Assembly (NCBI GenBank): GCA_903960135.1
Contig: CAJBZP010000068.1
Span: forward strand, 1 to 63,209
Length of the DNA stretch: 63,209 nt
DNA from: an uncultured Actinomycetes bacterium
GTDB lineage: Bacteria; Actinomycetota; Actinomycetes; S36-B12
Direction of reading: 5' to 3'
Shown here: one piece after another, positions 24,730 through 44,494 of the stretch
Layout of the letters: each line of letters opens with the position of its first letter
Position numbering within the stretch: position 1 is the first letter of the stretch
The notes under the pieces: model-generated
Databases searched by the model: none
The model's input: the letters and a program-made list of their open reading frames with translations, nothing else
What the model was told of the DNA's origin: nothing
Program-made: the position numbers and the translations under genes

Positions 24730-24740
24730 AACTAAACATG

Positions 24741-24832
24741 CACGGGAGCTCCTGCCTAGTGGAGCTGAGAGGGCGACAGCACGGCGTCGCCGACCGTTCG
24801 AACCTGTCCGGGTAATGCCGGCGTAGGGAGGA
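24741..24832 (+). promoter_or_regulatory. TPP (THI-box) riboswitch
   Basis: Reads GGGAGCUCCUGCCUAGUGGAGCUGAGA-(GC hairpin GGGCGAC..GUCGCC)-GACCGUUCGAACCUGUCCGGGUAAUGCCGGCGUAGGGAGG. The hallmark CUGAGA, GAACCUG and GGUAAU..GCGUAGGGA blocks are all present. The 3' AGGGAGG is also the SD of the downstream ORF. Confidence 0.85.
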
Positions 24833-24834
24833 TT

Positions 24835-25443
24835 TTGGTGTCGATGTTCATGAACGTGGCCTTCAGTGCGTGGAACTATGACGTAACGGTGCTTGAGTTG
24901 CTGGCCGTGATTACCGCATTTATCGGAATCGGTCTGGCAATCCGCGGGACGCGGTGGGCGTGGCCGTTCTATTTCCTCTCAAGTGCCCTATATGGCTGGC
25001 TGCTCTGGGAGTACGCCCTCTACGGCACCGCGGCCCTGCAATTGGTTTTTATTGCCGCGGCAATCTGGGGTTGGTTCGGGTGGGGGCCGAAATCCATCAC
25101 CCCCACCACCGTCAGTAATCGAACCCGCCTGATCCTCCTGGCTGGCAGTCTCGCGGCCTGGCTCGCCTTGGTGCCCGTCCTCGCAGCAATCGGGGATCCA
25201 GCGCCGTGGCCCGATACTTTCGTCTTTGTCGGCAGTGTCGTCGCCCAGGTATTGATGGTCCGTGAGTACGCAGAGTCGTGGGTCCTTTGGATGGTCGTAA
25301 ATGTTGTGGGAGCCGCCCTTTACGCAACACAAAACCTCTGGTTCACCTCGTTGTTCTACGCGGCGCTAATTGTGCTGGCGGTGATTGGCCTGCGTAGCTG
25401 GCTAGCCAAGCGGGCACCGCTCCCGGGTTCGACTCACCTATGA
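24835..25443 (+). CDS. pnuC: PnuC-family transporter (predicted thiamine-specific PnuT type)
   Basis: 202 aa with about 7 TM helices. LYGWLLWEY...IWGWFGW Trp-rich PnuC signature. Controlled by the TPP riboswitch. Start is TTG 24835, GTG 24838 or ATG 24844. Confidence 0.8.
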   Translation: MVSMFMNVAFSAWNYDVTVLELLAVITAFIGIGLAIRGTRWAWPFYFLSSALYGWLLWEYALYGTAALQLVFIAAAIWGWFGWGPKSITPTTVSNRTRLILLAGSLAAWLALVPVLAAIGDPAPWPDTFVFVGSVVAQVLMVREYAESWVLWMVVNVVGAALYATQNLWFTSLFYAALIVLAVIGLRSWLAKRAPLPGSTHL

Positions 25444-40661: not shown

Positions 40662-42458
40662 GTGCTAAAGGAGTTCTCCGTCCCGGTGATCGTCCCGGCC
40701 CCCACCTCGGGGAGCTTGGTCGACCACATCACCGAAAATGCCGAGCAGGTGCCAGACAAAGTTGTCTTCTCGGTGCCCCGCGGGGCCGCTTGGGTCGGCA
40801 TCACAGCCAAGCAATTCAATGACGAGGTCAAGGCAATCGCCAAAGGCATCATCGCGAACGGGGTCGAGCCGGGCCAGCGCATTGGCATCATGTCGCGCAC
40901 CCGATACGAATGGGCATTGGTCGACTACGCGATCTGGTACGCCGGAGCCGCAAGTGTGCCGATCTACGAGACGTCATCGGCGGAGCAGGTGCAGTGGATC
41001 CTTAGTGATTCCGGAGCTGTTGCCGTGTTCCTCGAGACCCATAAGCACAAGGCGGTATTCGACCAGGTTGCAGTTGAAATCCCCGACGTCACGCGCATGT
41101 GGGTGCTAGACGACGGAATTCTTGAAGATCTAAAGTCAGCGGGCAAAGGTGTCAGCGACGACGAACTTGAATCTCGGCGCGCGACTTTGAGCCCAGCCTC
41201 CGTCGCGACCATCATCTACACCTCCGGTACCACGGGGCGACCGAAGGGCTGCGTGCTCACGCACAGCAACTTGATGTTCGAGGTCGACAACGTGGTCCAG
41301 GGCCTCAAGGAGGTGTTCTTGGTCGAAGGGTCGTCAACTTTGCTGTTCTTGCCGGTTGCCCATGTATTCGGTCGCCTTATTCAGCTGGGCTGCGTTCGAG
41401 CCCGCGTGCGCCTGGGCCACACCGCCGATATCAAGGAGCTTCTCCCAAACCTGCAATCCTTCCAGCCGACCTTCTTGCTCGCGGTGCCCCGAGTTTTCGA
41501 GAAGATCTACAACTCCTCGCAGCAAAAGGCGAATGCCGCCGGCAAGGGGCATATCTTCGAAACCGCAAGCCAGGTGGCCATCGACTACAGCAAGGCCCTT
41601 GATGACGGTGGCCCCGGGATCGGCTTGAAGATCAAGCATGCTGTTTTCGACCGCTTGGTCTACAAGAAGTTGCGCGCCGCAATGGGTGGGAAGCTGAAAT
41701 GGGCGGTTTCCGGCGGCGCACCACTTGGCTCCCGACTCGGGCACTTCTTCCGCGGTATCGACGTCACGATCTTGGAGGGCTACGGCCTGACCGAAACCAG
41801 TGCCGCCACCACAGTAAGCCGACCACATGCCCTGCGCATCGGCAGCGTCGGCCAGCCGCTGCCGGGGGCCAGCGTCAAGGTGGCCGATGACGGCGAACTT
41901 CTGCTCGCGGGTGCCCAGATCTTCGCCGGCTATTGGAATAATCCGGCCGCCACGGCCGAGGCCATCGAACCCGATGGCTGGTTTCACTCCGGCGATATCG
42001 GCGAAATCGATGATAAGGGCTTTGTCCGAATCACCGGCCGCAAGAAGGAGCTCATCGTCACCGCCGGCGGAAAGAATGTGGCTCCCGCTGTGCTCGAAGA
42101 TCGAATTCGCGCCAACTGGTTGGTATCGCAGTGCATGGTCGTCGGCGATGCCCAACCATTCATCGCAGCACTTGTCACCATCGACCCCGAGGCATTTCCG
42201 GCTTGGGCTAAGCAAGCCGGTAAACCCGAATCTGCAACCATTGCCGACCTTGTTGCCGATGCGGATCTAACTGCTGCGGTGCAATCGGCAATCGATGAAG
42301 GGAACAAGGCGGTGTCACATGCCGAGGCCATCAAGAAGTTCGTGATCTTGCCTAATGATTGGACCGAAGAGGGTGGCCAGATGACCCCTTCAATGAAGTT
42401 AAAGCGCAATATCGTGATGAAGGAATGCGAAGGCGAGATCGCCGCCCTGTATTCATGA
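40662..42458 (+). CDS. fadD: long-chain fatty-acid-CoA ligase (FadD15-like)
   Basis: 598 aa. AMP-binding motif YTSGTTGRPKG, plus GYGLTETS and TGDIGEID-like blocks. Confidence 0.9.
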   Translation: MLKEFSVPVIVPAPTSGSLVDHITENAEQVPDKVVFSVPRGAAWVGITAKQFNDEVKAIAKGIIANGVEPGQRIGIMSRTRYEWALVDYAIWYAGAASVPIYETSSAEQVQWILSDSGAVAVFLETHKHKAVFDQVAVEIPDVTRMWVLDDGILEDLKSAGKGVSDDELESRRATLSPASVATIIYTSGTTGRPKGCVLTHSNLMFEVDNVVQGLKEVFLVEGSSTLLFLPVAHVFGRLIQLGCVRARVRLGHTADIKELLPNLQSFQPTFLLAVPRVFEKIYNSSQQKANAAGKGHIFETASQVAIDYSKALDDGGPGIGLKIKHAVFDRLVYKKLRAAMGGKLKWAVSGGAPLGSRLGHFFRGIDVTILEGYGLTETSAATTVSRPHALRIGSVGQPLPGASVKVADDGELLLAGAQIFAGYWNNPAATAEAIEPDGWFHSGDIGEIDDKGFVRITGRKKELIVTAGGKNVAPAVLEDRIRANWLVSQCMVVGDAQPFIAALVTIDPEAFPAWAKQAGKPESATIADLVADADLTAAVQSAIDEGNKAVSHAEAIKKFVILPNDWTEEGGQMTPSMKLKRNIVMKECEGEIAALYS

Positions 42459-42514
42459 ACTGCCGGTATTCATGAACTGCCGGTCTTCACGAACTGCCGG
42501 TCTTCATGAAACTG
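42451..42514. repeat. 17-bp tandem repeat (ATGAACTGCCGGTMTTC), three full units plus partial copies
   Basis: Units at 42455-42471, 42472-42488 and 42489-42505, then a degenerate ATGAAACTG. The first unit contains the fadD stop codon (42456-42458). Confidence 0.9.
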
Positions 42515-42613
42515 TGCACCCGATGAAAAGTTCGGGCTAGCCGACTACCCGGCCAATCCCGGTGAAGTGCTGCGCGTACCAAGGCGCGAGCACATTGGTG
42601 ATTATGACGCCGT
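42506..42613. repeat. direct repeat copy A (108 bp, 1 mismatch to copy B)
   Basis: 42506-42602 is identical to 44387-44483. After one mismatch, 10 more matching bases follow. The offset is 1881 bp. Confidence 0.95.
42537..42613 (-). pseudogene. orphan 3' fragment of the ripC-like NlpC/P60 gene
   Basis: Encodes GVIITNVLAPWYAQHFTGIGRVVG*, identical to the C-terminus of the intact gene at 44418-45491. The upstream reading frame bears no resemblance to NlpC/P60. Confidence 0.85.
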
Positions 42614-42774
42614 GAACTTGGAGCTTGGTTCGGTTGGATACGAGAAAAGTGAAATTCATCACGAGATAGCGAATATTAAGTGCGAGCAAGTGGCGCGAAG
42701 GTTTGGATATGCGTACGTGAATGATTACATGGGAAGGTCTTCCAACCCTGAAGTTACATACTCTCGTTGGCAAC

Positions 42775-42990
42775 TTAAAATCTAGGCGAACTAGCTTCTA
42801 AAACTTCTACAATAAGTTGCAACGATTCCCTAGCCCATGCCACACCATCCGCGTCGAGACCTTCCTCAAATTCAATTCCTAGCCCGTTAGTAGGTGCTGG
42901 GTTGACATTTGCTGTCGATTGGGCAGATTCCGTTAGGGGCGATCCAGCCACACCGACCCGTGAGTTGACCGGCTGATGCGCTGAACCCAT
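42775..42990 (-). CDS. hypothetical small protein or gene fragment
   Basis: 71 codons from ATG 42990. Only the C-terminal part (GIEFEEGLDADGVAWARESLQLIVEVLEASS) looks protein-like. The 228-aa track ORF extending to 43461 is antisense to the secreted-protein gene. Confidence 0.25.
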   Translation of the reverse strand: MGSAHQPVNSRVGVAGSPLTESAQSTANVNPAPTNGLGIEFEEGLDADGVAWARESLQLIVEVLEASSPRF

Positions 42991-43017
42991 GCGTCGCCGC
43001 TGGTAGCGTCGCGGCGT

Positions 43018-43938
43018 ATGGGACCACTTGGAACGTCCGTAAGGGCGACAGCCGCGCTCGGGCTGTGCCTGTCTGCCGTGACGGTTGGAGCGGTCGCACC
43101 AGCACCGAGCGCCTTTGCGGTGAGTGGCCAGACAGCAAGGATCGTCGATGACCCGAGGGCCCCAACGGTCTCGAAGGCGACCTGGCGCGAGTACCTGACC
43201 GCGATCACCGATGCGGCCGTTGCGCTTCCCTCCGAGGTCGCCCGCGATCTGCTGGTGCCCGCGCCGAGCGACGCACGCACCAGGTGGAAAACCATCGACG
43301 GGGTTGACTATCTGCTCGTGACCGCCCTGAGGTTCGCCCCGGTGAGCACCGTGGATCCCGGTGCGCAATTCACCCTCGATGCCAGCCGTTGGGTGTCGAT
43401 TCCCGGGCAGCTCGCCTCGGAGTGCGTCCGGTACTCCTGTGCCAAACTCGGCACCCAGCAACTCGATCTCACACTCAAGCAGGTCCTTGGCCTGCCGCCG
43501 GATGCCGACTACCGCTACGTCTCAGAGTTCTGGGTGAAGCCGGCCGACATGTTCCGGCCGTGCACCGACCCGCGGATCACCAGCCCCAGTTGCCCAGAAC
43601 TTGTCGTTGGTGCGTCCGCCGGAATCCCGACGACGGTGGGGGAGGTGACCCTCACGGAGTTCCTGTGGTCGCAGGCGAACTACGCATGGCGGGCGCCTGA
43701 TCGATTCCGGCCGAAGGCGGCCGTCTCCTGCGCTCAGGATTATGCGAACGCATCCGTCGGTCAGTGCTACGGCTTCCCGTGGACCCGGCTTGGGTACACC
43801 TACGACTGGAGCCCGGGGGCGAAGGACGACATCGGCCTCACCGAGTTCGTCGTGGCGAAGGGCGCTGTCGCATATCTGGAGAGGGTCGGGACCCAGCGCG
43901 AGTTCTTCCCATTCTCGAAGCGGGGCAGCAAGCCATGA
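43018..43938 (+). CDS. secreted hypothetical protein, six Cys in the mature part
   Basis: 306 aa. Signal peptide ...LGLCLSAVTVGAVAPAPSAFA. Aromatic-rich C-terminal block QCYGFPWTRLGYTYDWSPGAKDD. No family recognised. Confidence 0.6.
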   Translation: MGPLGTSVRATAALGLCLSAVTVGAVAPAPSAFAVSGQTARIVDDPRAPTVSKATWREYLTAITDAAVALPSEVARDLLVPAPSDARTRWKTIDGVDYLLVTALRFAPVSTVDPGAQFTLDASRWVSIPGQLASECVRYSCAKLGTQQLDLTLKQVLGLPPDADYRYVSEFWVKPADMFRPCTDPRITSPSCPELVVGASAGIPTTVGEVTLTEFLWSQANYAWRAPDRFRPKAAVSCAQDYANASVGQCYGFPWTRLGYTYDWSPGAKDDIGLTEFVVAKGAVAYLERVGTQREFFPFSKRGSKP

Positions 43939-43939
43939 C

Positions 43940-44380
43940 CGTGCCCGATTCGACCTGCCCAAAACCCACGCCCTGGATGCTCTCGCTGTTGGTCATCCCG
44001 ACACGGTCGACGCCATCCATCCGACCGTCACGCGAACACTCACAATCACTAGCAACGGACGCGGGCAATACCAGCGCACGAAACCTGACAAGTACGGCTT
44101 CCCCCGCCTCAACCTGACCCGCGTGAAGTCCCATCACGGGTTCCAAACCGGCGACATTGTTAAAGCCACCGTCCCTGCAGGGAAACACGCAGGCACCCAC
44201 ACCGGCAGGGTCGCAGTTAGAAAATCAGGTTCCTTCAACATCACCTCAACCCTTGGAACCATCCAAGGCATCAGCCATAAGCGCTGCACCGTCCTCCAGC
44301 GTGGAGACGGTTACGGATACCTCTGGAAGGAGGAAGCGTTCTCCTCCCGGCCCTTGAAGGACCGGGTTTCCGAACGCTGA
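43940..44380 (+). pseudogene. C-terminal remnant of an IscB/IsrB-type (RRXRR-HNH, OMEGA) RNA-guided nuclease
   Basis: The frame-2 translation FDLPKTHALDALAVG...GRGQYQRTKPDKYGFPRLNLTRVKSHHGFQTGDIVKATVPAGKHAGTHTGRVAVRKSGSFNITSTLGTIQGISHKRCTVLQRGDGYGY matches my recollection of the RuvC-III (H..DA) plus C-terminal target-interaction region of actinobacterial IscB-like HNH endonucleases. The N-terminal RuvC-I/II, bridge helix and HNH are absent. Confidence 0.6.
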
Positions 44381-44386
44381 AACTAG

Positions 44387-44494
44387 ATGAAACTGTGCAC
44401 CCGATGAAAAGTTCGGGCTAGCCGACTACCCGGCCAATCCCGGTGAAGTGCTGCGCGTACCAAGGCGCGAGCACATTGGTGATGATGACGCCGT
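44387..44494. repeat. direct repeat copy B
   Basis: See copy A. Copy B is contiguous with the intact NlpC/P60 gene. Confidence 0.95.

Follow-up and report, generated by a model that had tools for sequence, protein, structure and literature searches.

Positions 43938-44386 of the window (the whole 63,209-nt stretch, positions 1-63,209 of contig CAJBZP010000068.1 of an uncultured Actinomycetes bacterium, assembly GCA_903960135.1) very probably represent a non-functional relic of an IscB-type (OMEGA) element of the IS200/IS605 family, which arrived here with its interior already swapped for cargo DNA. IscB is an RNA-guided nuclease and the transposon-borne ancestor of Cas9. The locus retains the C-terminal part of the iscB coding sequence and the adjoining transposon end, preceded by an unrelated gene for a 306-aa secreted protein, and the same junction between this gene and iscB was found in two other genomic contexts.

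Identification of the IscB fragment

Frame 2 of the forward strand is free of stop codons at positions 43940-44377, encoding 146 aa, and ends with a TGA codon at 44378-44380, in exact agreement with the translation quoted in a first-pass annotation of this DNA. The codons correspond to residues 386-523 of full-length relatives, followed by an eight-residue tail, LKDRVSER. The best BLASTP partner of the fragment, the full-length RRXRR- and HNH-containing protein P0002 (523 aa), shares 88% identity with it over 138 aa (E 3.5e-75), a similarity much too strong to be due to chance, and the alignment covers the C-terminus of P0002 from residue 386 to residue 523, its last. DNA comparisons were based on the full-length relatives L014, L015 and L052-L054. 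DNA homology to L014 and L015, which are ~78% identical to the window, starts at position 43938, and the IscB remnant was delimited by this start and by the BLASTP match to P0002 as 43938-44380 on the forward strand.

A word-indexed search limited to longer proteins returned 1801 sequences with E <= 1e-3, nearly all of which bear Pfam RRXRR (PF14239) and HNH domains, while many carry the NCBI name 'RNA-guided endonuclease IscB'. When 1.8 billion representatives were searched exhaustively with HMMER, 1419 hits were obtained, all long ones matching at the C-terminus. Since all close sequence relatives of the fragment possess HNH, its parent can be identified as an IscB and not an IsrB. Searches of the fragment itself against Pfam and NCBIfam produced no hit, because the IscB models there span just the N-terminal and HNH parts. 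No IscB was detected by phmmer search of the fragment against PDB sequences, and no solved IscB by hmmsearch of the C-terminal profile against PDB sequences.

By sequence, solved IscB/IsrB structures could be reached only from full-length P0002, through its PKTHALDA motif. The full-length protein could be aligned to TbaIscB (9k30, E 1.7e-52), OgeuIscB (7xht/7utn), HfmIscB (9k2z) and DtIsrB (8dmb), and its alignments end at 'RARFDLPKTHALDALAVG', facing 'PKTHMNDA' of TbaIscB (9k30) or 'PKDHYLDA' of 11hr_A, a solved 495-aa IscB. In the OgeuIscB structures this motif corresponds to the RuvC-III His/Asp helix. The RuvC-III catalytic His/Asp motif is present in the fragment as K-T-H-A-L-D-A at 43961-43981 (+ strand), with His at 43967-43969 and Asp at 43976-43978; among 30 homologues, conservation reaches 90% or more at fragment residues K8, H10, D13 and A14.

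The remainder of the fragment is predicted by an AlphaFold model to form a beta-rich C-terminal domain at fragment residues 31-131 (44030-44332, + strand), with nine strands between residues 32 and 131 and a mean pLDDT of 81-95 in ten-residue blocks over residues 61-130. The three best Foldseek matches of this model in the PDB were DtIsrB (E 5.4e-4), HfmIscB and TbaIscB. The C-terminal parts of the same three proteins also rank first by VIA, with Z of 8.0 for HfmIscB, 7.6 for DtIsrB and 7.3 for TbaIscB over 58-80 residues, though this is a middling match, with generic SH3/Tudor/KOW barrels just below at Z 6-6.9. By its position and fold likeness, the modelled domain is consistent with the domain of IscB that interacts with the transposon-adjacent motif (TAM). 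BLASTP, HMMER, the alignment to solved structures and the fold search agree with the first-pass description of the fragment as a truncated IscB in which only RuvC-III and the C-terminal beta domain remain.

Absence of a functional nuclease system

In P0002, Pfam assigns RRXRR to residues 86-265 and HNH to residues 284-326, and the fragment contains neither. The sole open frame holding the fragment (212 aa, 43742-44380) starts within the 306-aa gene, in a different reading frame from it, and the fragment itself has neither a start codon nor a ribosome-binding site. Pfam detected neither PLMP/RRXRR (PF14239) nor HNH (PF01844/PF14279) on the fragment or on the 212-aa frame, HNH being present in the relatives. 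The genome (2.33 Mb in 152 contigs, 95.5% complete) was matched by the fragment at the window locus only, and full-length P0002 used as a query also matched once, with residues 377-523 at the same locus. Nothing upstream of residue 377/386, where RuvC-I, RuvC-II and the bridge helix would be encoded, was found anywhere in the genome. The Pfam results and the genome search with the full-length query bear out the earlier statement that the RRXRR/PLMP region, RuvC-I/II, the bridge helix and HNH are missing.

The omega RNA of IscB corresponds to the Rfam family HEARO (RF02033) (Meers et al. 2023, doi 10.1101/2023.03.14.532601). No HEARO was detected in the window at the gathering threshold or around the fragment at E <= 10, and none was found in the whole genome, in a search whose control gave no signal anywhere. 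The protein encoded by the fragment cannot cut DNA, because it is without RuvC-I/II, HNH, the RNA-binding N-terminus, a guide RNA and a translation start. As a nuclease, the segment at 43938-44380 is an ordinary pseudogene and a non-functional relic.

The first-pass annotation had suggested that intact copies with omega RNAs may exist elsewhere in this genome or in its relatives. The genome contains no second copy, and comparison of P0002 with 60 relatives revealed no real IscB, the hits being confined to HNH domains in other proteins. Intact copies accompanied by HEARO were found in metagenomes. When the remnant DNA was compared with 150 genomes of the family, just one decayed relative was found, at G158:C103 (4766-5281; L041/L042) in another genus. 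Sequences corresponding to P0002 residues 2-114 and 460-523 adjoin there in one 255-aa open frame, an arrangement that reads as an internally deleted IscB element. No HEARO was detected at this locus at E <= 1.

Intact relatives and their omega RNA

Five full-length relatives with DNA are available (L014, L015, L052, L053 and L054). A covariance-model search detected HEARO in all five, with scores of 100, 78.7, 106.9, 93.9 and 93.9 bits, respectively, at a gathering score of 83; in each case it starts 80-100 nt upstream of the called ORF start and overlaps that start. The intact relatives sit in intergenic spaces and are oriented like the upstream gene, for example in fabH/acpP and pheS/pheT, and L054 comes from the same metagenome sample as one copy of the window locus.

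At positions 700-760 of L014, and in the counterpart regions of L015, L052, L053 and L054, a conserved AAAGGAGG followed by ATG was observed within the HEARO scaffold. Due to this combination, gene callers start the IscB ORF inside the omega RNA, producing proteins of 523-557 aa. Pfam RRXRR starts only at residue ~85 of the ORFs called in this way. For annotation, the lesson is that the called ORFs of the intact relatives begin inside the omega RNA.

Retained transposon end and adjacent motif

In blastn comparison of the window with L014 and L015, homology runs past the stop codon of those genes to about 44390. In a seven-way alignment of the window, the contig L028 and the five intact relatives, hardly any variation is seen in the final ~100 nt of iscB and the ~35 nt that follow, and all seven sequences carry GATGA(A/C) at the boundary and diverge directly after it. 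The iscB-distal transposon end was placed at 44290-44386; it overlaps the last iscB codons and lies opposite the omega RNA. Folding of the minus strand as single-stranded DNA predicts a subterminal hairpin at 44335-44378, 13 nt from TTCAT, with an energy of -21.7 kcal/mol (z = -3.35). A retained end with a subterminal hairpin is the end anatomy of IS200/IS605 elements.

From the fact that the ORF stops 6 nt before a repeat (copy B, below), the first-pass annotation had concluded that both IS ends are gone. The spacing is correct, with copy B starting at 44387, but the conclusion must be revised: the iscB-distal end overlaps the last codons and is retained, DNA homology reaching 44386/44391, where the five intact elements diverge, and including the hairpin. 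The window has this end only; the omega-RNA-side end was found in L028, and no further copies of either element end were found in the genome.

The end is followed by the conserved boundary motif ATGAA at 44387-44391 (TTCAT on the minus strand), which constitutes the first 5 nt of repeat copy B. In IscB elements the omega-RNA side is designated RE and the TAM lies 5' of LE, and for Geobacillus elements the TAM is TTCAT (Meers et al. 2023, doi 10.1101/2023.03.14.532601). On this convention the retained end would be LE, and ATGAA at 44387-44391, or TTCAT, is probably the TAM.

The end region also accounts for the C-terminal tail of the fragment. Relative to L014 and L015, the window has a one-base insertion between 44354 and 44355 on the forward strand (CCCTTGAAGG vs CCC-TGAAGG), which displaces the stop codon of these two closest full-length relatives and gives the tail LKDRVSER. 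L028 carries the same extra base at the equivalent position, as C. Other IscBs translate the conserved end DNA in a different frame too and have LKDRVS-type tails, so the insertion is in itself not disabling. A further lesson for annotation is that the transposon end overlaps the last iscB codons, the frame differing among homologues.

The cargo gene and its native context

The gene for the 306-aa secreted protein (43018-43938, + strand) is full length and has replaced the omega RNA and IscB residues 1-385. The earlier remark that the omega-RNA position is taken by an unrelated secreted-protein gene is correct: this gene lies there, and no HEARO does. Several homologues of the protein are likewise 306 aa long; the query is covered completely (100%) by those at 89-99% identity and to 97-99% by more distant ones. 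No Pfam or NCBIfam family matched the protein, and its homologues gave no Pfam hits. About 100 homologues were noted, the majority of them from metagenomes of freshwater Actinobacteria, and the collection indexes the exact 306-aa sequence in 416 blocks.

The native context of the gene is pirin-306-MFS, as in L029 and L030. This locus is absent from the present genome, where only a pirin at 47-51% identity was found, and there is no second copy of the 306-aa gene. Alignment of the window with L028, L029 and L030 identified a remnant of the pirin 3' end at 42919-42968 (+ strand), without the first 22 nt that are kept in L028.

The same composite in other genomic contexts

L028, a 2.5-kb Logan contig, matches window 42919-44391 over its nt 122-1594 at 99.46%, with unrelated flanks on both sides and a right boundary identical to that of the window. 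Toward its 5' end, L028 shares 93.5% identity with L014 over nt 29-105 and 96.9% with L015 over nt 31-94, a region that covers the omega-RNA-side end and nt 1-76 of the HEARO scaffold (a partial HEARO hit of 30 bits). At the left junction of L028, the truncated HEARO and the pirin 3' end meet in GAGGAC, which is common to both, and at the right junction, between the stop codon of the 306-aa gene and IscB codon 386, there is a microhomology of ACCG. The state with both transposon ends is known from this one contig.

A further type of copy was found in G010, a same-genus MAG titled Candidatus Nanopelagicales bacterium, from Lake Mendota. It matches window 42970-43969 at 99.7%, comprising the 306-aa gene and only 31 nt of IscB, and is located between a DUF4379 zinc-finger gene and ribonucleotide reductase. 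Nine further assemblies have this context, with identical boundaries. Across three genomic backgrounds, the break points recur at >99% identity, vs roughly 75-80% for the surrounding genes. The boundaries of the G010 type are at neither IS end, and therefore at least one of the spread events was not a transposition.

The scenario implied by the first-pass annotation, in which the islet once carried an RNA-guided nuclease element, supposes that an intact IscB element inserted here and decayed in place, the 306-aa gene coming later. The iscB-distal end does abut a plausible target, TTC/ATGAA, at the window locus. This reading is nevertheless unlikely, as the 306/IscB-386 junction recurs base for base in L028 and in the G010 type between unrelated flanks, L028 retains more than the window does (the omega-RNA-side end and 22 more nt of pirin), and the donor pirin-306-MFS locus is absent from this genome. 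Since the junction is shared by two other contexts and the native locus is absent here, the piece most likely arrived already truncated. The islet itself probably never held a working nuclease.

A scan of the genome collection for the junction 22-mer found the G010 MAG only, and viral contigs scanned for either junction yielded nothing. A single JGI metagenome hit to a junction, L033, was rejected, because its 23-nt match is fortuitous and lies in an unrelated gene of high GC content. None of the three contexts yielded an empty-site allele; for L028 this is explained by its right flank, which belongs to the multi-copy Lcl_C gene family (best match 74%).

In G010, about 2.67 kb (L019 1275-3940; G010:C61; JBIIOU010000016.1) has no counterpart in the syntenic region G000:C52 of the present genome. 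Besides the 306-aa gene and the 31 nt of IscB, this segment includes a 381-aa gene whose product has four DUF4379 treble-clef zinc-finger repeats.

Age, selection and coding capacity of the fragment

Differences between the fragment and L014/L015 are distributed over codon positions as 24/11/60, being mostly at third positions. A relative-rate count gave 11 window-specific replacements vs 7 for L014 and 10 for L015, with no clear excess. In comparison of near-identical copies, four of the five substitutions in the fragment are non-synonymous. The excess of third-position differences, with no clear excess of replacements, was read as a sign of recent truncation and not as evidence of function. 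Relaxed selection on the window lineage was considered and rejected, given the lack of a clear replacement excess in the relative-rate count. As far as such small numbers allow, the pattern would fit a recent truncation followed by neutral drift.

These counts also bear on the idea that the fragment is still a gene, encoding a small beta protein of the TAM-interacting type that acts as a DNA-binding factor or a regulator of related elements. Its product would be either an 85-aa ORF from GTG 44123, called by one gene caller, or the 212-aa frame from 43742. The frame is open for 146 codons in all seven copies examined, the 85-aa product is on record as a called gene, and the beta domain is predicted to fold with high confidence. 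We regard this as very unlikely: no Shine-Dalgarno-like sequence precedes GTG 44123, the 212-aa frame starts out of frame inside another gene, and there is no promoter-like site nearby. Moreover, the G010-type copies have lost all but 31 nt of the fragment with no replacement, the recent substitutions are predominantly non-synonymous, and the openness of the frame is explained by the youth of the truncation.

Structure of the islet and its flanking repeats

The islet comprises 1773 nt flanked by a 108-nt direct repeat, the two copies of which are 99% identical. Copy A (42506-42613) consists of 31 nt of intergenic DNA and the last 77 nt of an NlpC/P60 gene, and copy B (44387-44494) is located within the intact NlpC/P60 gene (44418-45491, minus strand). 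In same-genus genomes, the closest of which is G003 at 88-89% identity, fadD and NlpC/P60 are adjacent and the repeat is single-copy. The absence of the islet from relatives that have one repeat copy identifies it as an insertion. Six contigs of up to 218 kb, derived from other samples or records, contain the islet at 99.85-100% identity. A metagenomic chimera across the 108-nt repeat, conceivable in a 152-contig assembly where such repeats are shorter than or close to typical k-mer or read lengths, is extremely improbable in view of the identical islet with both repeats in contigs of this size from several independent samples and assemblers.

Between copy A and the pirin remnant lies an AT-rich segment of 305 nt (42614-42918), which occupies the place of the omega-RNA-side end in L028. 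It had no match in the 150 family genomes or in phages and plasmids. Open frames are present in this segment on both strands. A sigma-70-like promoter match was observed at 42753-42781 (+ strand), upstream of the 306-aa gene.

In copy A the site is unoccupied and reads TTC|ATGAA inside the palindrome TTCATGAA. A tandem array with a 17-nt period, CTGCCGGT[A/C]TTCA[T/C]GAA, starts at the fadD stop codon and extends over 42446-42510 with about four units. The palindrome TTCATGAA is held by three of the four units, one having TTCACGAA, and it presents a TTCAT-like motif on both strands. The length of the array varies by one unit between assemblies.

Proposed history of the element

In an earlier host with the native pirin-306-MFS locus, ~1.16 kb of the element interior, from nt 77 of the omega-RNA scaffold to IscB codon 385, would have been swapped for ~1.04 kb of host DNA, namely the last ~70 nt of pirin and the complete 306-aa gene. 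The junctions may have formed at the short microhomologies GAGGAC on the left and ACCG on the right. The composite would have kept both transposon ends, a state as in L028, and most likely was moved by TnpA acting in trans into a TTCATGAA site separating fadD from NlpC/P60. In this lineage, TTC/ATGAA in the palindrome of the last unit of the 17-nt array would have served as the target. The omega-RNA-side end would later have been lost here in a rearrangement that duplicated 108 nt of host DNA and added 305 nt.

The right boundary is precise in two unrelated contexts other than the MFS locus, and at least one TnpA-mediated transposition would explain it best. Simple transposition does not account for the duplication of 108 nt, for the 305-nt segment or for the imprecise boundaries in the G010 type, and the 108-nt repeat is not a transposition footprint. 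For these features, template-switch repair and homology-facilitated illegitimate recombination are guesses only. The complete account, in which a cargo-swapped IscB element with intact ends was generated through microhomology, was mobilised in trans between freshwater Nanopelagicales species and now provides the sole copy of the gene here, is proposed tentatively, as something short of probable.

A candidate source of transposase in this genome was sought with Y1_Tnp (PF01797), which gave one match of 48.8 bits at G000:C92:37503-37763 (L034 1450-1764), truncated there by the end of the contig. The search revealed no TnpA with matching ends. The match on C92 looks like a HUH transposase of the RAYT/IS200 type, with an HVHYLI motif.

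Comparison with known systems

The fragment is homologous to the C-terminal third of characterised IscB proteins (OgeuIscB, 7xht/7utn; TbaIscB, 9k30; HfmIscB, 9k2z). It keeps the RuvC-III K-x-H-x-x-D-A signature and the C-terminal beta domain, and its intact close relatives have HEARO/omega RNA immediately upstream and are oriented like the upstream gene. It differs from them in being without PLMP/RRXRR, RuvC-I, the bridge helix, RuvC-II, HNH, the omega RNA and its own start codon. The C-terminal domain of IsrB (8dmb) ranks with the best structural matches (Foldseek E 5.4e-4; VIA Z 7.6), but IsrB is HNH-less, whereas the close sequence relatives of the fragment all possess HNH.

The nearest analogues of the composite are palindrome-associated transposable elements (PATEs) and elements with only tnpB or iscB, which are moved by TnpA in trans (Meers et al. 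2023, doi 10.1101/2023.03.14.532601). Like PATEs and other non-autonomous IS200/IS605 derivatives, the composite has conserved ends with subterminal hairpins, an adjoining TTCAT-like motif and no transposase of its own, and in the L028 state both ends are kept and the interior is changed. Unlike PATEs, which contain no protein gene or the omega RNA only, it has as its interior a captured host gene for a secreted protein; moreover, the window copy is one-ended and presumably immobile. A limited literature search, which is not proof of novelty, found nothing relevant on passenger-carrying IS605/IscB elements, and a cargo-swapped derivative of an IscB element in the abundant freshwater Nanopelagicales may be considered a modestly new variant.

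The locus offers no new editing enzyme; its value is that of a dated snapshot of the decay and repurposing of an OMEGA element. It suggests that ends of the IS200/IS605 type can ferry ordinary genes once the nuclease module is lost, and the composite would explain the route of a secreted protein into a very widely sampled freshwater actinobacterial population.

Elsewhere in the window, a TPP riboswitch (RF00059, 66.9 bits) was detected at 24732-24846 on the forward strand.
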